DNA from: a virus
Lineage: Duplodnaviria > Caudoviricetes
Length of the DNA: 64,000 nt
IMG/VR virus record: IMGVR_UViG_3300046539_000030
Span: 7,070 to 71,069 of that record
Strand: one strand, 5' to 3'
A program made the position numbers and the translations under genes. Below the pieces are notes generated by a model. That model was given only the letters and a program-made list of their open reading frames with translations. It ran no database searches and was not told the origin of the DNA. This document shows positions 3,000 through 58,819 of the stretch, piece by piece (the stretch's first letter is position 1; every line of letters begins with the position of its first letter).

Positions 3000-3670
3000 A
3001 AGATTGGACAGCCCAGCAATTAAACGCGAAGCTGCCCGCCTTTAAGACCTTCCTGACCGCTCGCGGCGGGGAGGTTTTAGAACCCACAAGTGAATGGGAG
3101 GTTGTGCGGTTCAGAAGCGGCAGCAACACTTCCATTATTTACACGAACAAGAAGGGAATATTGAATTTTTATGGCGAAGATGCGAAAGCTGCCTTAGACG
3201 CCTACCGAACCAACGGTAGCTGGCGTGCCAATCTGCATGTCTTTAAGAACCGAACAAAGAATTCCTCGGTTGTATGCCGAACATTGCGCAAGCGTGACGG
3301 CAATAACTGTTTCTTTTGCCTCAAAGGTGTGAAGGCTGAAGAAGAGTCTGAAGAACACCTGTTGTCGCGCACGCACGGCGGAAGCGATCATATCGCTAAC
3401 AAAGTCCTGGCGCATAAAGCATGCAATTTGAACGCTAATCATTTGAGCGTAGCAGAAAAAATTCGTATTCATGTAGAAGCCCAACTAAAGAAAGCAAGGA
3501 CTGACTATGAAAACTCCCTTAAGTTCCGCGAATCCTTGCGCCAACAGCGAGGAATCGGAGAACATACTGATAGCGAAAGCACTAGCGATAGTGGGCCAGC
3601 GGTTACACAAGCCCGGGGCTTATTTGACTTGCCCGAATCTACTGGAGGAATACCTGATTCTAAAAATTAA
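2996..3670 (+). CDS. HNH endonuclease
   Basis: CFFC..EEHLLSRTHGGSDHIANKVLAHKACN HNH/Zn motif. Confidence 0.8.
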   Translation: MKDWTAQQLNAKLPAFKTFLTARGGEVLEPTSEWEVVRFRSGSNTSIIYTNKKGILNFYGEDAKAALDAYRTNGSWRANLHVFKNRTKNSSVVCRTLRKRDGNNCFFCLKGVKAEEESEEHLLSRTHGGSDHIANKVLAHKACNLNANHLSVAEKIRIHVEAQLKKARTDYENSLKFRESLRQQRGIGEHTDSESTSDSGPAVTQARGLFDLPESTGGIPDSKN

Positions 3671-5938: not shown

Positions 5939-6172
5939 ATGGATGACACGAATCCGGCGCAATCCGAGTTCGATAAAAAATATATCACAGCATGGGAAGT
6001 GATGCGTACCGTGGGTGTCACCCGCGCTGCATTGCTCTATGCTCGGCGCACTCATAAACTCCCCGACCCTATTACCCTCAACGACGGAACTTTATTTATC
6101 TGGTTGCGCGAAGATGTGCAGCCGTACCTTGACGCTTGGAAGATTGTTCTCGATACGCGCCGGGGTCACTGA
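5939..6172 (+). CDS. AlpA/excisionase-like HTH DNA-binding protein
   Basis: YITAWEVMRTVGVTRAALLY...LPDPI...IWLREDV pattern; start uncertain (5927 or 5939). Confidence 0.6.
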   Translation: MDDTNPAQSEFDKKYITAWEVMRTVGVTRAALLYARRTHKLPDPITLNDGTLFIWLREDVQPYLDAWKIVLDTRRGH

Positions 6173-8643
6173 TGGCAATTAATTATGATCGCATCCCAGA
6201 AGAATTGCGCTGGGATAGAAGTTGGTGCATCGCAGGTAAAGATGAAAACACAGGTCGGTATCGCGCACCATACGGATACGGGCGCAGAGGACTGTTTCAC
6301 GTTAGTCCGGTCAAACCGGAACAATGGTCAGATTTTGAAAGCATTGTAGAAATTGCTGCGGCTAATCCTCCATGCGGGATAGGTTACGTTTTAGCTGACA
6401 CAGACGCTTATTCCGTTATTGATCTGGATATTAAGGACGCAACTACTGAACCTGACCACACTAAATGGACATCTCAGGAGCAGATCGACCGCTACCATCG
6501 TATTATCACAGCGTTTGACACTTACACCGAGCGCAGCGCCAGCGGTCTGGGCTTCCATATCTGGGTGCGCGGCAAAATTGGTGACGGCCTTAAGCGCGAT
6601 GGCGTAGAAATCTATTCGCGTGAGCGGTTCATTGTCTGTACGGGTAACGTGTTCCTGGACAAACCTATTGAGGCGCGTCAAGACCTGCTAAATCTGCTTG
6701 CTGCGGAAATTAGCCAGGCTTCCCCTGCTTCACATGGTGCGTTTGAGCTCGTAGAGATCGAACCTACCGAATCTGACACCGCTATCTTCAGGCGTGCAGC
6801 AACCGCAGATAACGCGGAAAAGTTTATCGATCTATGTGACGGCAATTGGTCGGGCAAATATCCTTCGCAGTCAGAAGCTGACCTAGCATTGATGTCAATC
6901 TTTACTTTCTACAGCCCGTCGAACGAACAGTGCCGTCGCATGTTCCGCCTAACTGAGCTAGGTAAGCGGGCAAAAGCAACTAAGAACGATGTCGCTCTAA
7001 ACCGCATACTGACGGTTATTCGCGCAAGGCAAGCTAATGCAGAACTGGTCGACGCTGCTGCGGCTGCTGCTGCCAGTATGCTAGTTGCTAGCTTAAATGC
7101 ACCCCTAGCACCGCAGGCAAGCGCCCCCAGCACGCAAGCGCAAGCAAGCGCACCCTATACCATACCCGCACAAATAAACCCCCCAAAACCGCTGCAAACA
7201 AGCGTCCAATTCGAGCGCATCCCTCTGCCCGAGGAACTGGAAGGTTATGTACCGCCACCTCTGCCAGAAACAGAGACGCGTGAGATAATGCAGAAGACAG
7301 CTAGCATTGATTGGCCGCCAGGTATCTTGGGCCGGGTTGCGCGGTTCATTTACCACAACTCGCCGCGCCCTGTTCAAGAGGTGTCGATTGTCTCCGCGTT
7401 GGGCTTCGCTGCCGGAGTGTGTGGTAAAGCTTACTGCCTCCCGCAAAGTGGCTTGAACTTGTATGTCGTTTTGATTGCTAGGTCTGCAATCGGTAAAGAG
7501 GCAATGCATAGCGGTATATCCACAATTGTGAAACAAGTGGCTGACACTTGCTCACGTGTGACGCAGTTCATAGATTTTACGGACTATGCTTCGGGGCCAG
7601 CTCTGCTGAAAGCGGTCACTGCGAACCCAAGCTTCGTGAACGTATCTGGTGAGTGGGGGCGTAAGCTGCGCAGGTTATCAATGGAAGACGGACGTGACGG
7701 GCCTATGCAACAGTTGCGCACGGTGATGACTAATATGTACCAGAAATCCGGGCCGTCCTCGATTGTTGGTGGTCTTGGTTACAGCGATAAGGAAAAGAAC
7801 GTTGGGAGCGTGTCTGGCGCAGCGTACAGCATGATTGGCGAAAGTACGCCTGGCGGGTTTTATGATTCGCTTACCGACACCATGATGGAAGACGGGTTCC
7901 TTAGCCGCTTCACCATTATTGAATACACGGGCGAACGTCCAACAGCTAACCCAAACATTGTAGATACGCTTGATGAAGATTTAAAGGCGCATTTGGCAGC
8001 ACTGGCGGAAGCTGCTTTAAAGACGACATTAGGTTCCCCTGTATATGTCACGCAGAACCCCGAAGCTGAGGCGCTTCTGCAAGCTTTCGATCTGGAATGT
8101 GATACCAATATTCGTGCCGCAGGTGAAGATGAAAGCACCAGGCAGATGTGGAACCGTGCTCATTTAAAAGCGAGCCGCATCGCGGCACTGTTGGCTTCGT
8201 GTGACGACTTTGAAATACCAATCATTAACAAGGGGCATGCCGAGTGGGCTATTGCGGTTATCCGCAAGGACATTGCAATTATGCAACGGCGCATTTCTTC
8301 TGGTGATGTCGGTATTGGTGACAGCCCCCGCGAGAAGAAGATTCTTGCAACCCTCCAGTTATACTTGTCCAAGCCTGTACCTGAAAGCTATGGTGTTCCT
8401 GACAAGATGCGGGTAGATGGCATCGTGCCTCGTAAATATCTGCAAATCGTTACAAACAAAGCGACCGCATTCACCCAACACAAACTCGGTTCCAATGCTG
8501 CTCTGGATCTCACCATGAAGTCTCTGGCAGATAGCGGATATGTTTCAGAAGTGCCTAGAGATAAGATGGTTAGCGGCTACAGCTTCCATGGGAAGGCGTA
8601 TCGCATTATCAATCTCCCTCGCTTCCCTGGAGGTACAAAATAA
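6172..8643 (+). CDS. primase-polymerase (AEP) with C-terminal DUF3987-like ATPase/helicase region
   Basis: IPEEL..W, DLD, ERSASGLGFHIW, EIYSRERFIVCTG (PrimPol); SQSEADLAL helical domain; ARSAIGKE P-loop-like; DGFLSRF. Confidence 0.8.
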   Translation: MAINYDRIPEELRWDRSWCIAGKDENTGRYRAPYGYGRRGLFHVSPVKPEQWSDFESIVEIAAANPPCGIGYVLADTDAYSVIDLDIKDATTEPDHTKWTSQEQIDRYHRIITAFDTYTERSASGLGFHIWVRGKIGDGLKRDGVEIYSRERFIVCTGNVFLDKPIEARQDLLNLLAAEISQASPASHGAFELVEIEPTESDTAIFRRAATADNAEKFIDLCDGNWSGKYPSQSEADLALMSIFTFYSPSNEQCRRMFRLTELGKRAKATKNDVALNRILTVIRARQANAELVDAAAAAAASMLVASLNAPLAPQASAPSTQAQASAPYTIPAQINPPKPLQTSVQFERIPLPEELEGYVPPPLPETETREIMQKTASIDWPPGILGRVARFIYHNSPRPVQEVSIVSALGFAAGVCGKAYCLPQSGLNLYVVLIARSAIGKEAMHSGISTIVKQVADTCSRVTQFIDFTDYASGPALLKAVTANPSFVNVSGEWGRKLRRLSMEDGRDGPMQQLRTVMTNMYQKSGPSSIVGGLGYSDKEKNVGSVSGAAYSMIGESTPGGFYDSLTDTMMEDGFLSRFTIIEYTGERPTANPNIVDTLDEDLKAHLAALAEAALKTTLGSPVYVTQNPEAEALLQAFDLECDTNIRAAGEDESTRQMWNRAHLKASRIAALLASCDDFEIPIINKGHAEWAIAVIRKDIAIMQRRISSGDVGIGDSPREKKILATLQLYLSKPVPESYGVPDKMRVDGIVPRKYLQIVTNKATAFTQHKLGSNAALDLTMKSLADSGYVSEVPRDKMVSGYSFHGKAYRIINLPRFPGGTK
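7052..7205. other. GA/TC-free island B (inside primase CDS)
   Basis: 154 nt with no GA or TC; encodes the Ala/Pro/Gln inter-domain linker. Confidence 0.9.
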
Positions 8644-17587: not shown

Positions 17588-18301
17588 TTGCTGGTATTGA
17601 TTGACAGATCCGCTATGTGCGTCCGTTACAAGCATCAGAAGGCTAAATGCTTAACCGACCTCATGCACATCGAAATGTCCCACGTTGCGGCATCCGTGGT
17701 AGAGCTACATCATCCAATGGTGTTCGACACCTTCACCGACCTGGAGCTTCGGCTGCTGTATCAGAACTTGTGTGGTCAAAAGTTCACAGGGTACAGCCGC
17801 GACATACTTTTATCCAATGTGTTCAAGCTTTGCACAGAGCTACCCAATTCCAATTTAAACGGACTTGAGCTAACTGTTCAGTCAGGTAAGATTGGTGAGG
17901 AAGATGATGGTTTCTATCGCTACCAGTTTGGCAGCATCTACCCTGCTGCGCTGGAAGAACCGTTTAACGGGCAACCCCTTACAGCGGCGCCGGGGTATGC
18001 ACCCTTACACACCCCCCTGCAAGCGGTAAAAACAGCACCAGCACCCGCACCGCAAGCGGCAAGCACACCCGCAAACGCACCGCGCCCCCGTAGCGCAGCA
18101 CCAGCAACAGGTGAGCCGCCCAAGACCGGAAGTAAGACAGGCCGGGTCTGGGAAATTGCCGACAAGGTCTGGACAGATAATGGTAGCCCCTCCAATATCA
18201 AACCATTGCGTGGCGCAATCGTTAGCGCATGTGAGGCTGAAGGAATCAATGGATCCACTGCGAGCGTCCAATACTCTAAGTGGCTTAAAACTAAAGGTTA
18301 A
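17588..18301 (+). CDS. hypothetical protein with C-terminal helical domain shared with 18423..18992
   Basis: GRVWEIAD...GINGSTASVQYSKW vs GKVWALAD...GLNDATTRTQYARW. Confidence 0.75.
   Translation: MLVLIDRSAMCVRYKHQKAKCLTDLMHIEMSHVAASVVELHHPMVFDTFTDLELRLLYQNLCGQKFTGYSRDILLSNVFKLCTELPNSNLNGLELTVQSGKIGEEDDGFYRYQFGSIYPAALEEPFNGQPLTAAPGYAPLHTPLQAVKTAPAPAPQAASTPANAPRPRSAAPATGEPPKTGSKTGRVWEIADKVWTDNGSPSNIKPLRGAIVSACEAEGINGSTASVQYSKWLKTKG
17958..18113. other. GA/TC-free island C (inside CDS 17588..18301)
   Basis: 156 nt with no GA or TC; encodes an Ala/Pro linker; two GCAAGCGG copies. Confidence 0.9.
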
Positions 18302-18422: not shown

Positions 18423-18992
18423 ATGTCCGAAAACCAAGCACAATCCGCCGACCAAGCCGCTCAAGCTGCTGCCCAAGCCAAAGCTGACAAAGACGCTGCT
18501 GCTCAAGCCAAGCAAGCCAAAGCTGACGCAAAAGCTGTTGCTGACAAGGCAAAAGCTGAAGCTAAACTGATCGCCGACCAAGCCAAGGCTACTGCCAAAG
18601 CTGCCGCCGATGCTGCAAAAGCTGAAGCCAAAGCTCAGAAAGATGCTGCTGTCGCTGCTGCCAAGAAAGCCAAGGAAGAAGCTGCCGCTCTGAAAGCCGC
18701 TGAAAAAGCCAAGCAAGCTGAAACCAAGACCAAAACTGTCATGCCTAGCAACAACGGCGTCACCCGTCCACGTCCTGAAGGCGCTTGCGGCAAAGTGTGG
18801 GCCCTGGCCGACCAACTGTCCAGCGAACTGGGCCAAGCTGTGCCGATCTCCAATCTGATCGTTGCCACTCAAGCTGCCGGCCTGAACGATGCGACTACTC
18901 GTACTCAGTACGCTCGCTGGAAGACTTACAACGGCGTGTTCGGCGTCGTTGCTAAGGTTGCCGCTCCTGCTGCAACCCAGACCGCAGCGTAA
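18423..18992 (+). CDS. histone-like Ala/Lys-rich protein with conserved C-terminal domain
   Basis: AKA/AAK repeats over ~100 aa; strong RBS; biased codon usage. Confidence 0.75.
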   Translation: MSENQAQSADQAAQAAAQAKADKDAAAQAKQAKADAKAVADKAKAEAKLIADQAKATAKAAADAAKAEAKAQKDAAVAAAKKAKEEAAALKAAEKAKQAETKTKTVMPSNNGVTRPRPEGACGKVWALADQLSSELGQAVPISNLIVATQAAGLNDATTRTQYARWKTYNGVFGVVAKVAAPAATQTAA

Positions 18993-19026: not shown

Positions 19027-19096
19027 GGAACCGTAGCTCAGCGGAAAGAGTAGCGAGGCATCGCGGACGCAGGTTCGAATCCTGTCGGTTCCACCA
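19027..19096 (+). ncRNA. tRNA-like RNA 2 (truncated anticodon arm, CCA end)
   Basis: GGAACCG/CGGTTCC, A73, CCA; D arm; T arm GCAGG-TTCGAAT-CCTGT; central arm only GCGA-GGCA-TCGC. Confidence 0.8.
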
Positions 19097-19224: not shown

Positions 19225-19926
19225 ATGTCAGTAATCAACATCCAACCTGTTGAGAAACAGGATCTCCTCGCACCAACGCTCTCCCTCCACAGTATCTTCT
19301 ACACAATCCAAGGTGAAGGCCCTTTTACAGGCCACCCTGCGATCTTTGTGCGCCTGGCAGGCTGTAACCTGCAATGTCCGGGATGCGACACCGATTACAC
19401 GTCAACCCGCGAGGCTATTACCGCAGGCCAACTGTTGTCAAAGATTTTGCTATTGTCTCAACAGACAGAATGCAAGTTTGTCGTACTGACAGGCGGTGAA
19501 CCGTTCCGTCAAAACATTGCGCCTATCGTTCGTATGATGGTCAGCTCGGGCCTCAAGGTGCAGATCGAAACCAACGGCACGTTGCATCAAGAAGATCTGC
19601 CGTGGGACTCTATCACCATCGTTTGCAGCCCAAAAGCTGGCAAGGTCAATGCAAAGCTTGCCCCGCACATTGATGCATACAAATATGTCCTGGCTTGGGA
19701 TAGCCTGGATGTAAGCGACGGTTTGCCTATCCTCGCGCTTGACCACACTGCTTCGCCCCGCGTAGCGCGTCCGCATTTCGGCTACAAAGGGCTTGTCTAT
19801 TTGCAGCCTATGGACTCGCAAGATAAGCTGACCAACGAGATGAACATGGACGCCTGTGTCGAATCTTGCATGGAACACGGCTACATCCTGCAACTTCAAA
19901 TTCACAAACTCATCGGGGTGGAATAA
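19225..19926 (+). CDS. queE: 7-carboxy-7-deazaguanine synthase (radical SAM)
   Basis: FYTIQGEG, FVRLAGCNLQCPGCDT CxxxCxxC, TGGEP, QIETNG, SPK, QIHK. Confidence 0.95.
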   Translation: MSVINIQPVEKQDLLAPTLSLHSIFYTIQGEGPFTGHPAIFVRLAGCNLQCPGCDTDYTSTREAITAGQLLSKILLLSQQTECKFVVLTGGEPFRQNIAPIVRMMVSSGLKVQIETNGTLHQEDLPWDSITIVCSPKAGKVNAKLAPHIDAYKYVLAWDSLDVSDGLPILALDHTASPRVARPHFGYKGLVYLQPMDSQDKLTNEMNMDACVESCMEHGYILQLQIHKLIGVE

Positions 19927-20134: not shown

Positions 20135-21220
20135 ATGGCAAAAATAAATAACTGGAGCCTCGGCGGCCATCCAACGAGCCCGTATCAAGCACCTGAAACG
20201 AACCTGCGCTTGCATGGTGTGGTCACAGGACACCCCAACTTCCCAGACGGTTCAGAAGTCACAACCAGCCGCATCAAGGAAGTCCGGAACGGCAAGGTGT
20301 ACACTCATACCGGCAGCGAGTACGAGTTAGGCACCGTTGACCCGGAATATGAAAAGCTCTACCCGAATGCTCTACATCGTCTTTTATCCCGCGCTATACA
20401 AATCGAGTCTTCTATTGAAGGAGTCAAAATGAACAAAGGTAAAGCACTGGTCGTTCTTTCTGGTGGTCAAGACAGCACCACTTGTCTGGCATGGGCTATC
20501 AACGAAGGTTATGAAGTCCATACCATCAGTTTCGATTATGGTCAAAAACATGTCGTTGAACTGCATGCAGCTCTAGCAGTTGCACGTATCTTGGGCGTAC
20601 CCGCCTCCAGGCAGGAATTCGTCCCTCTGGGTGCTGGTATTTTGGCAGGCACATCCCCGCTGGTGAACAAAAATGCGGAGCTCGAACAATATGCAGATCA
20701 TCAATCCTTACCGGGCGGCTTGGAAAAGACTTTCGTTCCCATGCGCAATCAGTTGTTTCTCACTGTCGCTGCTAACCGTGCCTATGTTCTCGGTTGCAGT
20801 GTTCTTGTCACGGGCGTGTGCCAGGAGGATTTCGGAGGCTACCCCGATTGTCGCCGTGTCTTTATTGACGCACTCCAAGATGCCTGCAACTATGGTACGT
20901 TCACAGGCCAGGGTGACACCTTGCCCCCGCTGCGCATCCTTACTCCACTGATGAGCCTTACCAAGGCTGCTAGCGTGCATCTAGCAATGAAGTTGCCTGG
21001 TTGCATGTCTGCGCTGGCTTATAGCCACACTGCTTATGACGGCCAGTATCCGCCGCTCGGACACGACCATGCAACTTTGCTTCGCGCCAAAGGCTTCGAA
21101 GAAGCGGGCATCCCTGACCCATTGGTTCTGCGTGCTGTTGGTGAAGGATTAATGGCTTCGCCTAATACGCCGAATTACACCGCTGAATCTATTCTCCATT
21201 ATCTCAACAACAAAGCTTGA
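20135..21220 (+). CDS. queC: 7-cyano-7-deazaguanine synthase with 98 aa N-terminal extension
   Basis: SGGQDST, FDYGQKH, TFVPMRN, YPDCR, PLMSLTK; second in-frame RBS/ATG at 20429. Confidence 0.92.
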   Translation: MAKINNWSLGGHPTSPYQAPETNLRLHGVVTGHPNFPDGSEVTTSRIKEVRNGKVYTHTGSEYELGTVDPEYEKLYPNALHRLLSRAIQIESSIEGVKMNKGKALVVLSGGQDSTTCLAWAINEGYEVHTISFDYGQKHVVELHAALAVARILGVPASRQEFVPLGAGILAGTSPLVNKNAELEQYADHQSLPGGLEKTFVPMRNQLFLTVAANRAYVLGCSVLVTGVCQEDFGGYPDCRRVFIDALQDACNYGTFTGQGDTLPPLRILTPLMSLTKAASVHLAMKLPGCMSALAYSHTAYDGQYPPLGHDHATLLRAKGFEEAGIPDPLVLRAVGEGLMASPNTPNYTAESILHYLNNKA

Positions 21221-21246: not shown

Positions 21247-21954
21247 ATGAAAAAAGTTCTGTTCGCTTCAATTCTCGCACTAGCTTTTGCAAGTGCGTTC
21301 GCAACAAACAACGGGTCGAAAGACCATCACAATACGGTCAACAATACGACCAACAACACGTCGACCAAAAACGAGAACAGCAACGCCAATCTCAACAGCA
21401 ACAAGAACTCGAACAACAATCTCAACAGCAACACAAATCGCAACAGCGTGAACAACGAAAGCTCAATCACGAATAACAACCGTGTGTCGAACGAGCAGGC
21501 TCAGCGCCAACGTCAGCAACAGCACCAGACGCAACAGTCCACAAGCTCGAGCACCGGCGGCGAAGCATCAAACAGCAATAATGCAGCGATGAACGTCAGC
21601 ATGAGCAATTCGCGCCAGGTCGCTTCAGCTGCAAACGTCACCGTCTTGCCAACCGCTGTCTGTTCTGGCAGCACGGCAGCAGGGGCGCAGGGTGTAGCCT
21701 TCGGCGTCAGCTTTGGTACATCCTGGACTGACGAGAACTGTATGTTGCTGGAACAAGTGCGTACAGTTTCCGTCGTACTGGATGACAAGGCTACTGCAAA
21801 AGAAATGCTCTGTTCTTTGAAAGCATACCGCGAAGCGCGTCAGCGGACGGGCAAGCCTTGCTCGCATGTGACAACCACCCCGGCGCCCGTTTCGCAAGAA
21901 TCAACCGACCCGAACGTTCGTGCTGCAATGGGCCTCCCTCCACTGTCTAATTAA
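21247..21954 (+). CDS. secreted Asn/Ser-rich protein
   Basis: Signal peptide; N/S/T low-complexity stalk; C-terminal 3-Cys domain (C..G..FG.S.G..D.NC...LC). Confidence 0.7.
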   Translation: MKKVLFASILALAFASAFATNNGSKDHHNTVNNTTNNTSTKNENSNANLNSNKNSNNNLNSNTNRNSVNNESSITNNNRVSNEQAQRQRQQQHQTQQSTSSSTGGEASNSNNAAMNVSMSNSRQVASAANVTVLPTAVCSGSTAAGAQGVAFGVSFGTSWTDENCMLLEQVRTVSVVLDDKATAKEMLCSLKAYREARQRTGKPCSHVTTTPAPVSQESTDPNVRAAMGLPPLSN

Positions 21955-21962
21955 GGCGTAAC

Positions 21963-22418
21963 ATGCCGTTCTATTCAACAAAGACGTTCCCCCATAGCAT
22001 CGGGTTGAGCGCAGCATTCCGGCAGTGGCGCGCAGAAAGTCATTGCCGGTTGATTCACGGTTATGCACTGCAAATCAAGTTCACGTTTGGCACCAACGAC
22101 CTGGACGTGCGCAATTGGTGCGTTGACTTTGGCTCGATGAAAAGCCTCAAGACCTGGATGGAGGACACCTTTGACCACAAACTACTCGTGGCGGAGGACG
22201 ATCCGGAACTGCAAACGTTCATGATGCTGCAAGCAAAAGACCTAGCTGACATCGTGGTCGTCCCTGCAACCGGCTGCGAGAAGTTTGCGGAGCTCATCTT
22301 CGGTGCAACCGAAATCTGGTTGAAGGATAACGGCTATGCACCGCGCTGCTGGGTTGAATCCGTTGAAGTATCTGAGCACGGCGCCAACAGCGCAATCTTT
22401 TTAAGGGGAAGAGAATGA
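21963..22418 (+). CDS. queD: 6-carboxy-tetrahydropterin synthase
   Basis: HCRLIHGY, FDH, E..A, SEH motifs. Confidence 0.92.
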   Translation: MPFYSTKTFPHSIGLSAAFRQWRAESHCRLIHGYALQIKFTFGTNDLDVRNWCVDFGSMKSLKTWMEDTFDHKLLVAEDDPELQTFMMLQAKDLADIVVVPATGCEKFAELIFGATEIWLKDNGYAPRCWVESVEVSEHGANSAIFLRGRE

Positions 22419-23323
22419 CAACTAAAATCATTCTTACGCAAGACACCATCAGCCAACTGTCAATTGCTCTGGTCAGAGAAATTGAAAAGGCTTTTGAAAA
22501 TCGTAATCCAGGCAAAGCGGTTAAAATATACGGCATCCCTCGGGGCGGAATGCAAGCCGCTTATGCTGTGAGCCGATATTTGTTTTGCACAATTGTTGAT
22601 ACACCTGAACAAGCGGACGCTTTTGTTGATGATATCATTGACAGCGGCACAACAATGCGCGAGTATTGCGACAAGTATCCGGGCAAACCATTCTTCGCGC
22701 TTGTTGACAAAACCGATCCAGACTGTACCTACAAAAACGACTGGATCGTTTTCCCGTGGGAAGCTGGTGAAGGTACAGGCATCGAAGATAACGTGCGCCG
22801 CATGTTGCAGTTCGCAGGTGACAAGCCTGAGCGGGAAGGTTTGCTGGAAACGCCTGCTCGTGTGGCCAAAGCTTACGAACATTGGTTCAGCGGTTACAAA
22901 GTGGACATCGCTGGTTTATTGAAAGTCTTTGAAGATGGAGCAGCCGGCTATGACGAAATGGTTATCGTACGTGATATTCCTATTTATAGCAAGTGTGAAC
23001 ACCATGTTGCAGATATTTTCGGCACTGTGTCTATCGCTTATATTCCTAACGGGCGTATCGTTGGGCTTTCTAAGCTCTCTCGTGTCGCGGATGCTTTCGC
23101 ACGTCGCCTCCAAGTTCAGGAACGACTGACAGGCCAAATCGCGGACGCGCTGATGGAACATCTGCAACCCAAAGGCGTAGGCGTCATCATGCGTGCGCGG
23201 CATATGTGCATGGAATCACGGGGCCTGTGTCAACAAGGGCATCACACTATCACCTCTGCGCTGCGCGGTGTCATTAAAACCGACCCTGCGGCTCGAGCAG
23301 AATTTATCAACCTCACTATGTAA
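22415..23323 (+). CDS. folE: type I phosphoribosyltransferase - GTP cyclohydrolase I fusion
   Basis: N-terminal GIPRGG, VDDIIDSGTT, WIVFPWE; C-terminal REGLLETPARV, CEHH, GLSKL, RLQVQERL, HMC. Confidence 0.92.
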   Translation: MTTKIILTQDTISQLSIALVREIEKAFENRNPGKAVKIYGIPRGGMQAAYAVSRYLFCTIVDTPEQADAFVDDIIDSGTTMREYCDKYPGKPFFALVDKTDPDCTYKNDWIVFPWEAGEGTGIEDNVRRMLQFAGDKPEREGLLETPARVAKAYEHWFSGYKVDIAGLLKVFEDGAAGYDEMVIVRDIPIYSKCEHHVADIFGTVSIAYIPNGRIVGLSKLSRVADAFARRLQVQERLTGQIADALMEHLQPKGVGVIMRARHMCMESRGLCQQGHHTITSALRGVIKTDPAARAEFINLTM

Positions 23324-23328
23324 ATCAA

Positions 23329-23682
23329 ATGTCAAACTCTATCATGGAACCAACCAACGGACGCATCGTCTGGTACACCCCGGCAGTAGGCGACGGCCAA
23401 ATTGTATATCACGGCAAGCCACTGGCGGCAATCGTCTGCAACGTCTGGGGCGACCGCATGGTCAACCTTTCGGTGATTGACGCAAACGGCGTTCACCATG
23501 CTCGCACGTCGGTTGTGCTTCTGCAAGGCGATGATCCAAAGCCGTCTTACGGCAACTGCGCCGAATGGATGCCGTACCAAAAGGTTCAACACAACAAGTC
23601 TCTAGAGGCGTCAAAGCTGAAGGATCTGAAGGCTTTGGGTCAGCCCTTCCGCGAACCCTTCACAACAGATCCAACCGTTTAA
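23329..23682 (+). CDS. conserved hypothetical protein
   Basis: PTNGRIVWY..AAIVCNVW..VNLSVID. Confidence 0.7.
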   Translation: MSNSIMEPTNGRIVWYTPAVGDGQIVYHGKPLAAIVCNVWGDRMVNLSVIDANGVHHARTSVVLLQGDDPKPSYGNCAEWMPYQKVQHNKSLEASKLKDLKALGQPFREPFTTDPTV

Positions 23683-23808
23683 AACGCGCTGTAAGCTGTT
23701 AAAATTTGCGGGGGTTGCTAGGGTATAGCGCCCCCGTTTTAATTGCTTGCCGCGCTTGTATGCAAGCGGCATAAGGGGGTTTTATGCAATGCGGTAAATG
23801 CAAAAGCG
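23671..23808. other. GA/TC-free island D (upstream of dpdA)
   Basis: 138 nt with no GA or TC; ~30 nt similar to the reverse complement of island A; CGGGGG/CCCCCG hairpin. Confidence 0.9.
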
Positions 23809-23975
23809 AAATGCTTATACGTCAGGGGAAGTTTGGCCCTTTTTGGGCTTGCCCAAAGTCGTACAAAGGTAATGACCACGGGACAGTCAAAACTGATGGT
23901 CGTCTTGCAGAAAATATTTTTGACATAGAAGACGAAAAAGTCCTCGACCAGCTCTACGAACTTGACGGGTATTGA
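23784..23975 (+). CDS. small topoisomerase-type C4 zinc-finger protein
   Basis: CGKCKSEMLIRQGKFGPFWACP. Confidence 0.65.
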   Translation: MQCGKCKSEMLIRQGKFGPFWACPKSYKGNDHGTVKTDGRLAENIFDIEDEKVLDQLYELDGY

Positions 23976-24910
23976 CAATGTATCTGTTTCTCGCTGCTGT
24001 TTATACTAACTCGTACATGAAGACCCAGAACCGTTATGTCAAGTTGACAGACGTTGAGCAGGGTATCATGGACGCCGTGCCCAACATACTCGAATCATAC
24101 CACTATGTTAATTCTCAAAAATATGTTGACGTTATGCGTCAGCAAGGCGCAAAAGTATTCCTTGACTCTGGTGCTTTTTCTGCCCATAGCCTTGGTGTAT
24201 CTATTGATATTCGGGAGTATTGCAACTATATCATACGCAATCGTGATATACTACGGGTTGAAGATGGGAATGTTATGGCTTCTGTCCTTGACGGTATTGG
24301 CGACCCTCTAAAGACCTGGCAGAACCAGTTGTACATGGAGTCGCAAGGTGCGAAGCCCCTCCCCTGCTTTCACTTTGGCGAAGACCCGCGCTATCTCGAC
24401 TGGTACGTCGAGCGTTACGAATATATCACAATTGGTGGTCTGGTGGGACGTTCTGCCAAAGACCAAGAAATATGGCTAGATCGCATCTGGGAAAAGCACA
24501 TGCTGGACGGTAGTGGACGTGCGAAGCTCAAAGTACATGCATTCGGTATGACCGCACCATGGCTGATGAAGCGATATCCGTGGTACAGCGTTGACTCCTC
24601 TTCCTGGATTCAAGCTGCTGCGTTCGGTTCTATCTTTACAAGCGAGCATGGCCCATTGGCGGTCTCCGCACAGTCTCCCAGCAGGCACGACGCAGGCCGG
24701 CATTTGACCACACTAACCGACATCGAGCGAGAGTCCGTCGAGCGGATGCTTGCACAAAAAGGTTTTAATTTTGAGCGTCTTTCCACAGTGTACGAGTCCC
24801 GCGCATGTTATAATTGTTTAGGGTATGTAGAACTCAATGACCTGATAAACAAGCACCTGGATGAAGTCCAAGGTGTGTTAGACGTACAAAAAGCACAGCA
24901 ACTATTCTAG
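23972..24910 (+). CDS. dpdA: DNA 7-deazaguanine transglycosylase (TGT-like)
   Basis: FLDSGAFS, VLDGIG, PCFHFGE, IGGLVG, KVHAFG, PWYSVDSSSW; located in the que cluster. Confidence 0.88.
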   Translation: MTMYLFLAAVYTNSYMKTQNRYVKLTDVEQGIMDAVPNILESYHYVNSQKYVDVMRQQGAKVFLDSGAFSAHSLGVSIDIREYCNYIIRNRDILRVEDGNVMASVLDGIGDPLKTWQNQLYMESQGAKPLPCFHFGEDPRYLDWYVERYEYITIGGLVGRSAKDQEIWLDRIWEKHMLDGSGRAKLKVHAFGMTAPWLMKRYPWYSVDSSSWIQAAAFGSIFTSEHGPLAVSAQSPSRHDAGRHLTTLTDIERESVERMLAQKGFNFERLSTVYESRACYNCLGYVELNDLINKHLDEVQGVLDVQKAQQLF

Positions 24911-24915: not shown

Positions 24916-26121
24916 ATGATGAAAGTAATAAACGACGAAGGTTCCCGCCCAATTAAGCTTTGGACGGATGACATCGAAGACGCTGCGCTCAAGCAGCTCA
25001 AGAATTTAGCACGCTTGCCGTTCATTGCCGGCAATGGTGTTGCCTGTATGCCGGACGTTCACGCGGGTATCGGTTCGACGGTCGGTACGGTCATTGCTAC
25101 GGAGAAGGCAATCATCCCTGCTGCCGTTGGTGTGGACATCGGTTGCGGTATGAACGCGGTTCGCTTGTCGCTTAAAGCTTCCGACCTGCCCGATTCGCTT
25201 TTGGTTATTCGCAATCAAATTGAGCGTGACGTGCCACTCGGTGCCGGTGGTCGACATCAGAATGACCTTGACGTTAGCTTAAAGTTCGCAAGACTTCCCC
25301 TGATGCAATATGCTGTACAGAAAACGCTCAGCGATGTTGCTGGTAGCTGGGAAAAGGCTGGAAAGAAAGCTGCTTGCCAGCTCGGCACGCTTGGTTCAGG
25401 CAACCATTTCATTGAACTGTGCATCGACGAGAACCAAGACGTGTGGGTTATGCTGCATTCTGGTTCGCGCGGTATTGGTAACATGATTGGCACCTACTTT
25501 ATCGAAAAAGCGAAGCGTCGCATGGAGCAGTATTTCATCACCTTGCCTGACGGTGACCTAGCGTACTTCCCGGAAAACACTGACGAGTTTAACGAGTATG
25601 TGGAAGCGGTCAGCTGGGCGCAGAACTACGCGCTGGAAAACCGCCGGTCGATGATGCAAGCTGTGCTATCTGCTTTGAGCCGGCATATTCCCGTTGAGTT
25701 TGCGGTCACCCATGAAGCTATCAACTGCCACCATAACTATGTTGAAAAAGAAAACCACTTCGGGCGCAATCTTTGGGTTACGCGAAAAGGCGCTATCCGC
25801 GCACGTGAGGGCGATCTGGGGATCATACCTGGATCAATGGGACAGCGTTCTTATATCGTACGTGGAAAAGGAAATGCAGAGTCGTATTGTTCATGCTCGC
25901 ATGGAGCTGGCCGGAAGATGTCACGATCGAAAGCGCGTAAAGTATTTACGATCGATGACCTTGCAAAGCAGACTGAAGGCGTGGAATGCCGCAAAGACGA
26001 CGCGGTCTTAGACGAGATCCCAGGCAGCTACAAGAACATCGACGAAGTCATGGCGAACCAGACCGACCTCGTTGAAGTTGTGCATATCCTGAAACAAGTG
26101 CTTTGCGTGAAGGGCGGTTAA
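24916..26121 (+). CDS. rtcB: RtcB RNA 3'-phosphate/5'-OH ligase
   Basis: MPDVHAG, VGVDIGCG, GTLGSGNHF, HSGSRG, HHNY, HGAGR, DEIPGSYK. Confidence 0.95.
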   Translation: MMKVINDEGSRPIKLWTDDIEDAALKQLKNLARLPFIAGNGVACMPDVHAGIGSTVGTVIATEKAIIPAAVGVDIGCGMNAVRLSLKASDLPDSLLVIRNQIERDVPLGAGGRHQNDLDVSLKFARLPLMQYAVQKTLSDVAGSWEKAGKKAACQLGTLGSGNHFIELCIDENQDVWVMLHSGSRGIGNMIGTYFIEKAKRRMEQYFITLPDGDLAYFPENTDEFNEYVEAVSWAQNYALENRRSMMQAVLSALSRHIPVEFAVTHEAINCHHNYVEKENHFGRNLWVTRKGAIRAREGDLGIIPGSMGQRSYIVRGKGNAESYCSCSHGAGRKMSRSKARKVFTIDDLAKQTEGVECRKDDAVLDEIPGSYKNIDEVMANQTDLVEVVHILKQVLCVKGG

Positions 26122-26774: not shown

Positions 26775-27733
26775 TGTTTAATGCACTTAAATTCTGCCAA
26801 GGTAGTGTGGCCAAAAAGGACTTCCTCCCGGCTCTTACGCACTTCGTAATTGAGCATGGACGCGTCCGCGGTTACAACGGGGTGATCGCATTGTGCAGCC
26901 CCATCCCCTTTGACATTGCTTGCAAGCCTCGGGCGGATAAGCTTATCAAAGCGATTGCAGCTTGCAAGGATACTGTTCAGCTTAGCTTGACGCCTACCGG
27001 CCGGCTAGCGGTTAAGAGCGGTAAGGCCAGGGTGTATGTGGACTGTGTTGAAGGTGACACCGCCCACGCAATGCCGGAGGGTGCATTCTTCCAGCTTAAT
27101 GGCGAAGCTCTGCTCGAGGGGTTAAAAGCAGTTGCGCCGTTCATAGGTGATGATGCTTCACGCCGCTGGGCCAATGGTGTGTTGGTGGAAAATCAAAGCG
27201 TCTTTGCGACCAATAATATCACACTGGTTCAGTATTGGGTGGGCTTTAACCTGCCTCGCTCGCTTGTGATACCTCGGGACGCTGTAAAGGAAATGCTCCG
27301 CATTGGTGAAGCACCAACCAGCGCACAGCTGGCGCAGAATAGCATCACCTTCCATTACGAGAACGATCGCTGGCTGCGCACTCAGCTTTATGATTCGGCA
27401 GCCTGGCCCAACCTGGCTAGCATTCTCGACACACCGTCAAGCCAGGGTGCAATTGAAGAGACTTGGAAAGAGGCCCTGGAAACAATCAAGCCCTTTGTCG
27501 ATAAGCTCGGTCGGGTCTTGTTTCAGCAGCAACGGATCGCTACACATGACAGCGACAGTGAAGGTGCGCAGTTTGACATGCCTGAGCTGATTGGTGTGGA
27601 TGGTATTTACAACATTGACATGTTGGAGCTTATCATCGGGGTTGCTAAAACAATTGACTGGAGCACATACCCCAGACCGTGCCTCTTCCAAGGTGGCAAA
27701 TTGCGCGGAGCCATTATCGGGATGCGCCCATGA
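26774..27733 (+). CDS. DNA polymerase III beta-clamp-like protein
   Basis: KKDFLPALTHF, ATNNITL, IPRDAV, C-terminal GAIIGMR; 319 aa; upstream of the polymerase. Confidence 0.7.
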   Translation: MFNALKFCQGSVAKKDFLPALTHFVIEHGRVRGYNGVIALCSPIPFDIACKPRADKLIKAIAACKDTVQLSLTPTGRLAVKSGKARVYVDCVEGDTAHAMPEGAFFQLNGEALLEGLKAVAPFIGDDASRRWANGVLVENQSVFATNNITLVQYWVGFNLPRSLVIPRDAVKEMLRIGEAPTSAQLAQNSITFHYENDRWLRTQLYDSAAWPNLASILDTPSSQGAIEETWKEALETIKPFVDKLGRVLFQQQRIATHDSDSEGAQFDMPELIGVDGIYNIDMLELIIGVAKTIDWSTYPRPCLFQGGKLRGAIIGMRP

Positions 27734-27906
27734 CGAACGATATAGTTAATCAGATTAATTCTTTGCTGCTTTATGATAAGCCTATCCCCGAAGCTTGGAA
27801 GGCTACGCTCAAGGAAGACGCAGACTCAAAATGTACCTCTTGTGATGGGTACGGCATTTTCTACGGAAATGTCTGTGTTTGCCATTGCGTTGAGGTTGAA
27901 GAATGA
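27730..27906 (+). CDS. small hypothetical protein
   Basis: CTSCDG...CVCHC; ATGA coupling. Confidence 0.5.
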   Translation: MTNDIVNQINSLLLYDKPIPEAWKATLKEDADSKCTSCDGYGIFYGNVCVCHCVEVEE

Positions 27907-30123: not shown

Positions 30124-30740
30124 CCACACTATATGAAGTGCTAGGCGTCAACCACGATGCTACCGAAAGCGAAATCAAACGAGCTTACCGCAGCCTTGCG
30201 CAAAGGAATCATCCTGACAAGGGTGGTTCGCGCGAAGCTTTCCAAGCAATTCAAAAGGCGTACGATATTCTTAGCGACCCGGAGAAGCGTGCCCGCTATG
30301 ATGACACCGGGGAAGAGCCTAGCCAGGCTCCCCGCTTGCGGGACATTGCAATCCATGAACTTGCCAGTTTGCTTGCGCAGACAATGGCACGGTCGGACGT
30401 GGTCTATACAGATCTTGTGCTCACCATGATAAAGCAACTTGGCCAGCAAGTCCAGCAAACAGAGTCAAACCGCAAGGTTGCTCTAGCTGCCATTGCAAAG
30501 AACAATGAAGCAATCAAACGCATCGTTGCAAAAGGTGACGGCAACATCCTTGCAGCCCTGCTAGGCACAGCCAACGAAGCTGCCAACAATCAACTTAAAG
30601 AGTTGGATAACTTGCTCATGGTGTTGGCGGAGATGAAAAAGGTACTCGACGACTACGAGTATAAGATTGACGCGCGACCCTCGATGACAAGCGGAAGCAC
30701 CATCTTTGGAACTACTACTGGGACTTATTACACCCCTTAA
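30120..30740 (+). CDS. J-domain (DnaJ-like) protein
   Basis: LYEVLGV..EIKRAYR...[21 protein letters not shown]. Confidence 0.9.
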
Positions 30741-30871
30741 TTAAAGCGCCGGCAAGCGGTTTAAGGGGTGCGGGTAGGGTTGCATACAGGGTGCGGCAAA
30801 CCAACAGCGCCGCACCCCTTTGCCGTGCTTGCTAGCTTACTTTGCTGGCGGGGTAGTAGCTTTAAAAAGGT
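30723..30871. other. GA/TC-free island E at the convergence of + and - gene blocks
   Basis: 149 nt with no GA or TC; 11 bp inverted repeat AAGGGGTGCGG/CCGCACCCCTT. Confidence 0.9.
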
Positions 30872-31106
30872 CGCTAGCTTTTAGCTTGGCAATCAAAGCT
30901 TCGAATGTTGGCCAGACATCGTCGAACGCATCAGCAACATCATTGTGCGCATCATACGCAGCCTTCAGTCCGATACGGACGATTTCCAGTTTCTGCACAC
31001 CAGGCAAATGGCCGGCAGCTTCTTCGATTGCTTTCATTGCTGTCAGGATGATTGGGATCATGCTGAAGATCAGCTTCACGGTTGCCAAGATTGTAGCAAA
31101 GTTCAT
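30837..31106 (-). CDS. hypothetical protein (lysis region)
   Basis: AAGGAG RBS before ATG 31106; amphipathic N-terminus. Confidence 0.65.
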   Translation of the reverse strand: MNFATILATVKLIFSMIPIILTAMKAIEEAAGHLPGVQKLEIVRIGLKAAYDAHNDVADAFDDVWPTFEALIAKLKASDLFKATTPPAK

Positions 31107-37629: not shown

Positions 37630-40600
37630 TTAGCTCAGGGTTGGTTTGATTGCGTCTTTCCTTGCGGCTTTGCTTATGCATTCGTCCAGTCCTTCAACAA
37701 CCGTGCTTGCGTTACGGTCGCTGGCGTCGTAGTTCGAAACAACCAAACGGGCGGTCTGGTCACGCTGTTCCTCTTTCAACTGCCTGACTTCTTCACGCAG
37801 TCCTCTAATTTCCTGGACAAGAGCTTCGTTAGCTCCCTTGCCGTAAGAGCTCAGATTTGTATTATACGCACTGTTCTCTTGAGAAGTCAATACGCGTTCA
37901 CCTTGATGCAACTCTGCACGGTAGCCGTCAAATGGTACATAAGACAATCCGCTTGCATGAACACCGTCAAGGTGAGCTACACCGCTGTCGCCAGGCAAGA
38001 CACCTCCGGTCATCTTCAAGAAGCTATAGTTTGAAATTGCTTCAGCAATCGTCTTAGTATTCTCTTCAACACCAAGCAAGTGATCGACAGTTGACTTCAA
38101 GTAGCTTAACGACTGTTCTGCCGTAGTCTCTTGGTTCGCAGCCATGTCCTTCTGCCGTGCAATGTCGGTCATTACCTGATTGTAGTCAGTATTGTAGCCT
38201 TGACCCGAAGCATTGAACTGCTTTGACAGCTCGAGGAACTGAGTTGCCTTGGCCTGATAATCCTGCATTGCATCTCGGTCACCGCTTTGCGCAAGCGCAG
38301 AGACTCTCATCATCTCCATCTTGGCAACAGTGTACTTGTCTGCCGTGTTAAGCGGGGACAGGTCGCCCATTGTCAGGTCGTCACGTAGCTGGGTCAGCGA
38401 ATCGCCAAACGCGCCGAATGCATCCCGCAGTTCACCAAGGCGGGTGGCTTCTTTGTCGTACGAATCTTCAAGGTCTGCTCGGGCCTTCGCAACTCTGTCT
38501 GCTGCTTCCTCAGCTGCCTTAGAGCCATCCTCAGTCACTTTGTACAGTTCGGCAAACGCGTCGGAAAGCATCATGACCTGCACACCAATCATCTGGCCCT
38601 TTTCGCCAGAGTGCATAAGTGCGTCCACGAGCTCTTTAAACCCCTCCATGCTGGTAGGCAGATCCATGCCAAGTCGGGCAAACTGCTCGCCGAGTATTTG
38701 AGCCTTCTGCACCTTCTGCTCAGCTTCGGTGAACATGTTTTCCATGTAAGTTGACAGCGCACTGTTCAAACCATCAATGCTACCAGCACCACGAAGCGCG
38801 CCAAAGGTCACTTCGCGACCCAGACCGGCAGCGTCCATTTTCATACGGGCGTCAACAAGACCTTGATATGAATCAACAATCTCGTCAATGGTGCCGCTCA
38901 TCTTGTCCATGACATCGAACAACGACGTTCCAAACTCGCGCCATTTCAATGTAGCCTTAACAATCTCAGCGCCAACGTCACCTTGCTTGTCGTCAACGTA
39001 GAGGAGCGGCAAGGCTTTAACGCCCAACGTTTCCAGTGCAAACTCTGCAGATTGGATTCCGCTAGCCACACGCATGAAGGTTTCGTAATAACCTTCACCC
39101 ATGCGCTGGAATTCGTCGAGCTGATTGCCCATCAAACCTTTTGCCAGGCTGTCTCCAATACGCGAGAACCAAGCTTGCAAGGTTTCTTCGACCTCCTTGC
39201 CGTCCATGTCTTTCAAGCTCATGAAGCCTACGGTCGTCCACTCACGGAACCAACGATCAACCTCTTTAGGGTCAAAGTGGAAGCTGGCGCTAGCATCGGC
39301 CAAGCTGGTGATCATGTTATCAATAACGTCACCAATAGCTTTGCTGACCGCTGGGTCAACCGCTCCGTATTGCGTGCTCACGGATGTCTTTTTAACCAGA
39401 CCGAACCAACTGCTGGACGTGCGCTGCACATCTGCATATTGCGAAACGCCTTGACCGTTTGCAAGGTCGCCTAGCTTGGCGTTCACGTACAAACCTGCAT
39501 CGGTGATGCTTTGAGTTGTCTTGCCCCACAAGTTTCGCAGAGCACCAATTAAACCGCCACCCTTGTTGATTTGCCCTTCAAAGATTCCCATGTTCTGGCC
39601 TGTGGTGATGCCCGCATTGCGCACCAACACGACCGCCAAGCTACTGATAGAACGGTTGATATCACGCAGGGCGTCCAGCATGTCTGTGTTCTGCCCGAGG
39701 CCTTCCTTAGTGTCTTTCTCAACTTGCTCCAAAGCTTTCAGCAGCGACTCGGACTTAGCTTCGCTGTCACCCATCACCGTGCCTGTGCCCTGGGCTTTCT
39801 GGCGTGCTTCCATGCGAGCTTTACCCATGCCCTGCGAGCCGCTATTGAACCCGCCTCCCACGGCAAAACCCAGCGCCGCCACCGCCGCAGCCATTGCTGC
39901 CATGCGGAAGAAGGCGCTATACGGGTCTCCCTGTGCTTGAGTCAAAACAGCCTTGACCGCCAACTGGCCCATCTCGATTAAGTTCATTGCTAACTGCGCA
40001 GCGTGGAAGGTTTTAGCAATACCGTCCATCATTCTGTAACCAGTGCTGTTCTCCTGGAAGAAGCCTTTAGCTGCGTTTGCCATTGCACCGTAGCCTGCGA
40101 GGTTATTCTGCAGGCTCATTCGGTCAAGCTTATCACGATCTTCAAGGAACTTCACTTGGTCTTTATTGCCGGTGGCCCTTGCAACATCATTGTTCTTATA
40201 CTGCGCAGCAAGCTCGTCCTGGCGATCCATAAAGGCGCCCATAGCATTCGAAAGATCCACAAGTGCGCCCATCGCACCTTTAAAGGCGCCACGCAACGCA
40301 TCACCGAACTTACGAGCCTTAGTTGGATCAAGGAACTTATCCAAGTCTTTCTTAGCCTTATCGCCGACGTTGAAAGCTTCAATACCTGCCAATGCCGCAG
40401 CGTTCTTTTTCTTGGCAGCAATCAAAGCTTCCAGCTTTTCAGTTTCAGCCGTGCATAGACCAATGCTGTTCATTTGCGCAAGTTGCTCTTCCATGCGAGC
40501 AATAGTCATTTCTTCAGTCACGGACTTGCCTTCTCGCAATTGCGAAAGTTTAAGTTCGTTTGTGGCAGCTTCTTTCTCTGCGCTTTCAATTGCCTTAGTG

Positions 40601-45152: not shown

Positions 45153-45800
45153 TTAATTGAAGATTTCTGCCCTGTACGGAATCATCACGGCCATCGCAAA
45201 AGTTTCACTTTCCACGAGCCCAGGAAGGATTGCCGGCGTTTTGTCTATATTTACTACTACTCCACCATTACTGAACGAAGCTCCCCTCGGGAACGTTGAC
45301 CTAATCAACTCTGCTCGTGTAACAACGTCTACTGTGCCCATGTTGGTTGGATAATACAAGCTGACTTGCAAATACCCATGTTCACGATAATGACTCGTGC
45401 CCAATGTTGAATTAATGGGGGTTGCGTACAAGACGTTGACTTTTTGGTAGGGAACCCCGGCAACGGGTTCAAACGCAACCCCTTCCCACGCTATTAGCTT
45501 AGGGGTTAAAACCCCGCCTGTACCGCTTGCCGTGCTTGCTATGGGGGTTTTTGTTACCTTGTTTTGTAAGCTAAAAGTAGTATCTGTCAGCTTAACAAAA
45601 TAATACGTGCCATCAAGCAAAACTTCAGAGTGCCCGCTAATACCAACGGTCACACCTGACTCTAAAAGATGTGGGGTGGCTGTCTCGAAAACCGCAGCAG
45701 TCGAACTCGCAGTTGATGCAACAATAGTCACAGGCAACACAATGCCCGGCATGGCGGCAACCGCTTGTTCCAACGCTGCGCGAACTTTAATCAGCGACAC
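45153..45800 (-). CDS. tail terminator with inserted beta-domain
   Basis: RAALEQ...IAWEGVAFEP..PYQ..GYLQVSLYYP terminator pattern interrupted by ~75 aa. Confidence 0.7.
   Translation of the reverse strand: MSLIKVRAALEQAVAAMPGIVLPVTIVASTASSTAAVFETATPHLLESGVTVGISGHSEVLLDGTYYFVKLTDTTFSLQNKVTKTPIASTASGTGGVLTPKLIAWEGVAFEPVAGVPYQKVNVLYATPINSTLGTSHYREHGYLQVSLYYPTNMGTVDVVTRAELIRSTFPRGASFSNGGVVVNIDKTPAILPGLVESETFAMAVMIPYRAEIFN
45485..45583. other. GA/TC-free island F (inside the tail terminator CDS)
   Basis: 99 nt with no GA or TC; shares the exact 15-mer TTGCCGTGCTTGCTA with island E. Confidence 0.8.
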
Positions 45801-58612: not shown

Positions 58613-58644
58613 GCCCTGGCTCCATGATACTCACTATTGGCTAG

Positions 58645-58674
58645 AGTATAGTTTGGAACTTACAAGGAGGGCAA
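58645..58674 (-). promoter_or_regulatory. sigma70-like promoter TTGCCC-N18-TATACT for the terminase operon
   Basis: Minus-strand -35 at 58674-58669, -10 at 58650-58645. Confidence 0.5.
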
Positions 58675-58691
58675 GCGTTTATTTTTGGGGG

Positions 58692-58819
58692 AGTAAAACA
58701 GGGGTAAAACGTACCGGGCAAAACACGGCAAGGGGTGTAGGCGCTGCGCTGCTGCTGGGGTAGGGTAAAGGGGTGCAACTATATAAAGCGCACCCCGTAA
58801 CGCGTTTAAGCGCGCCAGT
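58692..58819. other. GA/TC-free island G upstream of terS
   Basis: 128 nt with no GA or TC (152 nt from 58668 with one GA); G-runs; GGGGTGC/GCACCCC hairpin. Confidence 0.9.

Follow-up and report, generated by a model that had tools for sequence, protein, structure and literature searches.

The closest described systems to the one considered here are those of two phages of the Queuovirinae, iggy and CAjan, which carry folE, queD, queE, a long form of queC and dpdA between their helicase and clamp/polymerase genes (PMC10484667, PMC7544227). Nanopore sequencing and liquid chromatography-mass spectrometry place dPreQ0 at GA, GGC and GGT in CAjan DNA (PMC7544227), and in iggy it is found strictly at GA, with 97% of GA sites modified and 99.75% of the modified G in a GA context (PMC10484667). 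The same gene set in the same setting is present in an uncultured phage known from a linear 71,069-nucleotide (nt) IMG/VR virus record (IMGVR_UViG_3300046539_000030; estimated to be 86% complete), of which we analysed bases 7070-71069, a stretch of 64,000 nt that is called the window below. Here we describe islands in this DNA that lack GA on both strands (no GA, no TC), the missing dinucleotide being a published target motif of the iggy and CAjan enzymes. Comparable islands exist in iggy; the present phage differs from both in belonging to an uncultured clade with genomes of ~70-95 kb, and CAjan, with its wider set of motifs (GA, GGC and GGT), is without islands. The observation is real and highly non-random, and it reflects selection at the level of DNA that is specific to GA/TC.

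GA/TC-free islands in the window

Seven islands (I1 to I7) lie inside the window, and an eighth, weaker and intergenic (I0), is located at genome positions 2953-3144, 4 kb upstream of it. The largest GA/TC-free gaps in the window measure 156, 154, 149, 138, 128 and 99 nt and correspond to I3, I2, I5, I4, I7 and I6, respectively, while I1 is broken by a single TC at position 1387 into runs of 71 and 76 nt. GA and TC together account for approximately 11.4-11.5% of all dinucleotide steps, for which the longest expected gap is ~79 nt. When the window was simulated 300 times with a first-order Markov model, the longest gap had a mean length of 67 ± 8 nt and never exceeded 96 nt; no simulation (0/300) reached 99 nt, as against the six observed gaps of 99 nt or more. 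No outlier gap is seen in this genome for any of the other nine dinucleotide classes. A first-pass annotation of the same DNA had listed the seven stretches, with the one TC in I1, at coordinates that our analysis reproduces, and had called for a sliding-window count; 120-nt windows with two or fewer GA/TC steps coincide exactly with these seven regions and I0, and no further low-density windows exist. The chance of 2e-9 that it gave for a run of 150 nt is an underestimate by a factor of about five, since (1-0.115)^150 is ~1e-8, although its conclusion is unaffected. Its list of islands was correct, but it was silent on the fact that 7052-7205, 17958-18113 and 45485-45583 are inside coding sequences.

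The edges of the islands are sharp, normal GA/TC density being restored within 10-20 nt. Moreover, GA and TC are both zero, so that the absence is strand-symmetric and indicates a reader of duplex DNA, not one acting at the RNA level. Readers of the latter kind (RegB-like cleavage at GGAG, Rho binding at YC) were ruled out for this reason, and CC is abundant in I2 and I3. Avoidance of CRISPR protospacer-adjacent motifs (TTC/GAA) and of Dam or CcrM sites was also ruled out because all GA contexts are missing and not merely a subset of them. GGC and GGT are used freely inside the islands, and the earlier statement that GGC/GCC is not avoided holds. Most other gaps between called genes have a normal GA/TC density, and the islands are therefore not a general property of non-coding DNA. 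Regular spacing of the islands is not seen in this phage or in its relatives.

Avoidance of restriction sites and other short motifs in phages is similar in that the recognition word of a DNA-reading enzyme is removed, even at synonymous sites. Classical avoidance, however, is genome-wide and directed against host enzymes, whereas here the word is normal overall (GA+TC at 11.4% versus AG+CT at 11.7%) and is gone only from eight sharp windows, and the suspected reader is an enzyme of the phage itself.

Codon and amino-acid choice in the coding islands

Three islands run in frame through protein linkers.

I2, 7052-7205 (no strand assigned), 154 nt free of GA/TC, in frame through an Ala/Pro/Gln/Ser linker of the primase gene
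Primase/helicase gene, 6172-8643 (+ strand), phrog_3022, E=1e-204, host of I2
I3, 17958-18113 (no strand assigned), 156 nt, in frame through a Pro/Ala linker of the phrog_7864 protein
phrog_7864 gene, 17588-18301 (+ strand), function unknown, host of I3
I6, 45485-45583 (no strand assigned), 99 nt, in frame in a Thr/Ser/Gly linker ahead of the phrog_179 domain
Tail-terminator gene, 45153-45800 (- strand), host of I6

The tail-terminator reading frame has no in-frame start codon between residues 61 and 124, and its PHROG domain starts at residue 100, so that I6 must be translated.

We held the amino-acid sequence of each coding island fixed and drew codons from the genome's own usage in 100,000 resamplings. 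The expected numbers of GA/TC steps are 12.6 for I2, 10.5 for I3 and 9.6 for I6, and the observed value of zero was reached in none of the 100,000 draws for any of them (P<1e-5 each). Counts of AG/CT, AC/GT, CA/TG and CC/GG in the three islands are near expectation in the same resampling, in line with the earlier proposal that the islands are under selection. The encoded peptides contain no Asp or Glu, residues that make up 11.4% genome-wide, and their Ser codons are AGY although 61% of Ser codons in the genome are TCN. Both codon choice and amino-acid choice are bent to avoid GA/TC in the coding islands.

These data bear on the possibility that the islands are a by-product of composition, that is, repeats and low-complexity linkers built from a small vocabulary (GGGGT, GCAAGCGG, TTTAAA and Ala, Pro and Gln codons) that happen to lack GA/TC without any selection on the dinucleotide. 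Low-complexity coding sequence does yield long dinucleotide-free runs independently of DpdA. A case in point is the only island found in three annotated relatives lacking dpdA, a 166-nt run in the Gln/Gly/Pro-rich C-terminal tail of the single-stranded DNA-binding protein (SSB) of Pseudomonas phage SCUT-S3 (L034, 29620-29786), for which 3.6 GA/TC steps are expected and composition is a sufficient explanation (P=0.017). Any census of islands could use this run as a false-positive control. Runs free of AC/GT in proteins rich in Lys, Ala and Glu are another. The gene at 18423-18992 encodes a Lys/Ala/Glu/Asp-rich repeat protein with a weak TolA-like match, the iggy orthologue of which is annotated as a 'putative transcriptional activator', and its orthologues in relatives contain AC/GT-free runs of 115-218 nt that are purely compositional (Lys/Ala/Glu-rich). 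When the resampling was applied to the Gln/Gly/Pro-rich SSB tails of three relatives lacking dpdA, P values of 0.017-0.27 were obtained as compared to P<1e-5 for each coding island, and hence the test separates compositional from constrained gaps. Amino-acid sequence and genomic codon usage do not account for I2, I3 and I6.

A local mutational process of no adaptive value, such as mutagenesis caused by DpdA or recurrent deamination (TC to TT, GA to AA) of DNA that is frequently single-stranded, would be compatible with the hairpins in which the islands are rich and with the mildly raised AA/TT counts of the three coding islands (z ~1.7-2.3). Such an AA excess is equally expected under selection, however, through synonymous G-to-A changes. 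In addition, both strands are equally purged within boundaries that are sharp to 10-20 nt, TT steps are scarce in the C-rich islands I2 and I3, reading frames and conserved boxes are intact, and there is no genome-wide depletion of GA/TC. We therefore consider a mutational origin to be most improbable.

A cis-acting DNA element embedded in a coding linker has a parallel in the lambda origin, which lies inside the O gene. I2 likewise occupies the flexible interdomain linker of a replication protein, an analogy that does not make I2 an origin: the constraint in I2 is a missing dinucleotide, not iterons and an AT-rich tract.

Intergenic islands and shared DNA words

The genome layout is siphovirus-like. 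Early genes and those for replication and nucleotide metabolism form a block on the + strand that extends to position 30740, and the packaging, head and tail genes form a convergent block on the - strand. Within the latter, a degenerate 63-nt (21-aa) unit is repeated in tandem at approximately 47395-48650, in at least 10-12 copies, in the gene for a 1406-aa structural protein (47180-51400, - strand). Five islands (I0, I1, I4, I5 and I7) are intergenic and are putative control regions at the probable boundaries of transcription units; four of them, together with the gene downstream of I7, lie in the window as follows.

I1, 1317-1463 (no strand assigned), intergenic between the open reading frames (ORFs) 905-1330 and 1468-1728, free of GA/TC except for the TC at 1387
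I4, 23671-23808 (no strand assigned), 138 nt, including the entire 101-nt spacer from ORF 23329-23682 to the Zn-ribbon ORF 23784-23975 that precedes dpdA
I5, 30723-30871 (no strand assigned), 149 nt, occupying the convergent junction between a + strand DnaJ-domain gene (end 30740) and the - strand ORF 30837-31106
I7, 58692-58819 (no strand assigned), 128 nt, intergenic, 80-207 nt upstream of the terS start
terS, 58085-58612 (- strand), phrog_5334, downstream of I7

These positions agree with the contexts given in the first-pass annotation, namely one island upstream of dpdA (by way of the 63-aa Zn-ribbon ORF), one 80 nt upstream of terS and one that fills the convergent junction. I1 has a perfect 16-bp palindrome, TTAAAACGCGTTTTAA, at 1441-1456. 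I4, which extends 12 and 25 nt into the flanking coding ends, contains a conserved box, TTAAAACGCGCT (23679-23690), a promoter-like TTTAAA-16-TAAAAT (23678-23705) and a hairpin of -20 kcal/mol followed by a T-run (23708-23737). In I5 the stretch 30782-30823 is predicted to form strong hairpins in either orientation (-21 and -23.5 kcal/mol), and I7 combines the box CTTAAACGCG with G-run hairpins. No RNA family or tRNA was detected in any island with Rfam (gathering thresholds) and ARAGORN. The suggestion that islands mark promoters fails for at least one good promoter-like site, a sigma-70-like TTGCCC-18-TATACT directly upstream of terS, which lies outside I7 (within 58613-58691) and whose spacer contains three TC steps.

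The intergenic islands have in common a palindrome that resembles an operator (TTAAAACGCG(T/C)T), together with strong hairpins, runs of ACCCC/GGGGT and boxes of the form GCAAGCGG; the same DNA words recur in the three coding islands. Thus ACCCCC/GGGGGT occurs 11 times inside the islands versus nine times in the rest of the genome, GCACCCC occurs seven times inside and five times outside, and GCAAGCGG is enriched approximately 50-fold, each enriched word being present in five to seven of the eight islands. The box TTAAA(A)CGCG is found in I0, I1, I4 and I7. Some pairs of islands can be aligned, I1 with I4 as an inverted match (1428-1461 and 23674-23707; 85%) and I5 with I6 as a direct match (30803-30834 and 45510-45541; 75%). 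Shared rare words and alignable copies at several loci identify the islands as a dispersed family of cis-acting DNA that is partly embedded in genes.

Strongly enriched words of this kind are also what a compositional by-product would display. The spacers between the shared words are GA/TC-free as well, however, and the intergenic islands are balanced in base composition, so that ~17 GA/TC steps would be expected in I4. In addition, nine orthologues of the dpdA-upstream island from relatives have diverged to a mean column identity of 47%, and none of the nine contains GA or TC even though about one quarter of random substitutions would create one, which argues that the absence is maintained. 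Orthologue divergence and synonymous resampling largely refute the compositional explanation, which we regard as quite unlikely. Taken together, the synonymous-site result, strand symmetry, sharp edges and maintenance in diverged orthologues are hard to reconcile with either composition or mutation.

DpdA as the candidate reader

The genes for preQ0 synthesis and insertion are clustered on the + strand of the window.

queE, 19225-19926 (+ strand), Pfam Radical_SAM, 3e-8
queC, 20135-21220 (+ strand), long form, Pfam QueC, 2e-51, and TIGR00364 above its cut-off
ORF of unknown function, 21247-21954 (+ strand), within the preQ0 gene cluster
queD, 21963-22418 (+ strand), Pfam PTPS, 7e-16
folE, 22415-23323 (+ strand), Pfam GTP_cyclohydroI, 8e-69
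dpdA, 23978-24910 (+ strand), DNA guanine transglycosylase and putative GA reader, phrog_887, E=5e-84

The presence of FolE, QueD, QueE, QueC and DpdA, claimed in the first-pass annotation, is thereby confirmed. DpdA is 64.7% identical to its CAjan homologue over 95% of its length and 59.7% identical to that of iggy. Comparisons that might have revealed a TGT-like fold with its catalytic Asp and Zn site gave no match in Pfam, NCBIfam or PDB sequences at the thresholds used. Homology to experimentally linked phage DpdAs, together with the co-located FolE, QueD, QueE and QueC, places it among the phage enzymes. GA, which had been proposed as its target, is a published target of both the iggy and the CAjan enzyme (PMC10484667, PMC7544227). 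Several neighbouring features were also observed. FolE is extended at its N-terminus by ~120 aa that weakly resemble a phosphoribosyltransferase (Pfam E=4e-6, narrowly clearing the curated cut-off; no single matched stretch passes by itself). A full-length gene for an RtcB RNA ligase (24916-26121; Pfam E=3.5e-129) lies directly downstream of dpdA, where none is annotated in CAjan or iggy. Just upstream of queE, a tRNA-like gene at 19027-19093 scores 49.8 bits with the Rfam tRNA model; it is atypical, and ARAGORN reports no tRNA anywhere in the window.

We infer from these observations that DpdA may be the reader behind the avoidance, and give about even credence to the view that the islands are stretches of cis-acting DNA in which selection keeps out the DpdA target. 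On this account, selection on the DNA itself would keep eight discrete windows of 100-190 nt (seven of them in the window analysed) free of GA/TC on both strands. DpdA would exchange the G of GA for preQ0, as its homologues do in iggy and CAjan, and a GA-free stretch would be the only DNA to stay canonical, both in the virion and in the replicating pool. One or more DNA-binding proteins of the phage or its host that act at the islands, perhaps proteins needing guanine N7, could then still read the major groove. The free use of GGC and GGT in the islands fits an iggy-like, GA-only enzyme. Regulatory DNA that is kept free of a prevailing base modification is familiar from Dam-protected GATC sites in bacteria and from vertebrate CpG islands. 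The likeness is conceptual only: in those regions the motif is present and bound proteins shield it, whereas in the islands the sequence no longer has the motif at all.

The distribution of islands among relatives provides support for this idea. No near-identical phage DNA was matched in a public phage collection, and the nearest relatives by DNA polymerase and primase are uncultured IMG/VR contigs of 69-95 kb. All of the five complete or near-complete genomes of close relatives (G001-G005) have two to three islands each. A set of 25 dpdA-containing IMG/VR loci (411 kb), retrieved with the DpdA of this phage, has 20 GA/TC gaps above the E=0.01 threshold versus 0-6 for the other five pairs. The junction island is conserved in position in G002-G005 and in iggy, and the linker of the phrog_7864 protein is GA/TC-free in iggy (157 nt), in G004 (168 nt) and in two further loci (L011 and L015). 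Cultured Pseudomonas phage iggy, whose nanopore reads are public as SRR22405777 and SRR22407576, has islands of 171, 161, 157, 152 and 108 nt, including its convergent junction (27693-27854) and the phrog_7864 orthologue linker, and its coding islands give P values for zero GA/TC of 2e-4 or less. Other iggy islands are at 39299-39456 and 42699-42870. Because the iggy DpdA is strictly specific for GA, the iggy islands are unmodified DNA; those of the present phage would be so only if its DpdA is likewise confined to GA. Three annotated phages that lack dpdA but share the replication backbone have one, no and no islands, respectively, the one being the SSB tail of SCUT-S3. In a sample of loci centred on DNA polymerase, 32 loci in which no dpdA was found contain three islands, two of which are SSB tails and one of which belongs to an incomplete locus of this phage's own clade. 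Nearly all members of the present clade in the DpdA tree carry islands, as does iggy, and the CAjan group that is sister to iggy has none.

Two further observations were made on the relatives. In G001 and G003 a zone of ~0.8 kb near one genome end is almost GA/TC-free (G001 C1:485-1254 and G003 C1:65957-66746; loci L037 and L048); it takes in an upstream region together with the greater part of an early gene for a 153-aa product (G001 919-1380), in which a run of 110 residues is devoid of Asp and Glu. The orthologous gene of the present phage, which lies before the window at genome 429-866, shows no such purging. We also asked whether GA-less palindromes are avoided more than GA-containing ones, as they should be if GA sites are protected. 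The ratio of observed-to-expected values is 0.92-1.06 in every genome with dpdA, including the positive controls iggy and CAjan, and the test has no power. Observed-to-expected values for GA-containing palindromes are 0.56-0.71 in two relatives lacking dpdA (L034 and L035), 0.87 in a third and 0.84-1.04 in every genome with dpdA, and the difference might conceivably reflect protection of GA by modification in the phages that have the enzyme.

A number of observations weigh against DpdA as the reason for the islands. The GA-only specificity of this phage's enzyme is extrapolated from homologues that are 60-65% identical to it. CAjan modifies GA and has neither GA/TC islands nor windows free of the union of GA, GGC and GGT. 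In the sample centred on DNA polymerase, 47 loci with dpdA (890 kb) contain only seven islands and whole lineages have none, so that unmodified control DNA is not a general need of dpdA phages. The lack of islands in CAjan can be understood on this hypothesis, since six words would have to be avoided, at a cost, and a stretch without GA could still be modified; the other island-free lineages with dpdA are not explained by the DpdA-target hypothesis. Island positions are also labile, those in the primase and tail-terminator genes and upstream of terS and dpdA being weaker or absent in several relatives; for the most part, islands in the primase and tail-terminator genes are confined to the present phage. 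As all close relatives carry dpdA, island presence and dpdA are inseparable within the clade. The promoter-like site before terS lies outside I7 and contains TC. Nothing explains, moreover, why 100-150 bp should be GA-free instead of a binding site alone.

Several of these points would be accommodated if selection against GA/TC is real but the reader is another phage or host factor acting on duplex GA/TC, such as a nuclease, a nicking enzyme, a primase with a TC-containing start site or a defence protein, and the co-occurrence with dpdA is a coincidence of lineage. Islands do track particular lineages and not dpdA as such, CAjan modifies GA and has none, and dpdA is invariant within the clade, which confounds the association phylogenetically. 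Host glycosylases attack DNA containing 7-deazaguanine (bioRxiv 10.1101/2025.10.29.685425), showing that other readers take part in this arms race. The same idea has to contend with the occurrence of islands in two separate DpdA clades, those of this phage and of iggy, one of which is experimentally GA-only, and with the absence of islands beyond a compositional SSB tail from the three relatives that lack dpdA on the same backbone. Moreover, we know of no protein other than DpdA that reads a bare GA step on duplex DNA. A reader other than DpdA is therefore rather unlikely in our judgement, if clearly a competitor to be reckoned with.

The interpretation offered in the first-pass annotation is thus supported in part. 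DNA-level selection, the preQ0 pathway with DpdA, and recurrence in relatives with dpdA and in iggy (with none beyond composition in the three lacking it) all stand. CAjan, which the annotation had itself cited as an example, and many lineages with dpdA are without islands, however, which are therefore lineage-restricted and not a general consequence of carrying the gene, and the GA specificity of this DpdA and the need of bound proteins for guanine N7 are inferences. GA-free, GA-devoid or GA-depleted regions are not mentioned in PMC7544227, in PMC10484667 or in the literature covered by further full-text searches; like the first-pass annotation, we have found no description of such islands in print.

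In broader terms, we tentatively propose, with a little less than even confidence, that phages with a GA-only DpdA write selected cis-acting DNA without GA on both strands, comprising terminator and promoter hubs, the convergent junction, in-frame linkers and, in relatives, whole early genes, and thereby maintain programmed canonical windows in a hypermodified genome. If this is true, the phage pays a measurable price for unmodified windows in the form of bent codon usage and linkers without Asp, Glu and TCN serine, and the islands would give the first evidence that a phage's own DNA transactions are affected by 7-deazaguanine in the DNA. They would mark where modification-sensitive proteins act, pinpointing the parts of the genome that are still open to restriction enzymes, Cas nucleases and DNA-binding regulators, and sequence alone could reveal the target motif of an uncharacterised DpdA or DNA-modifying phage. 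Because islands are also present in cultured iggy, whose GA motif and nanopore data have already been published, the idea can be put to the test at the bench now.

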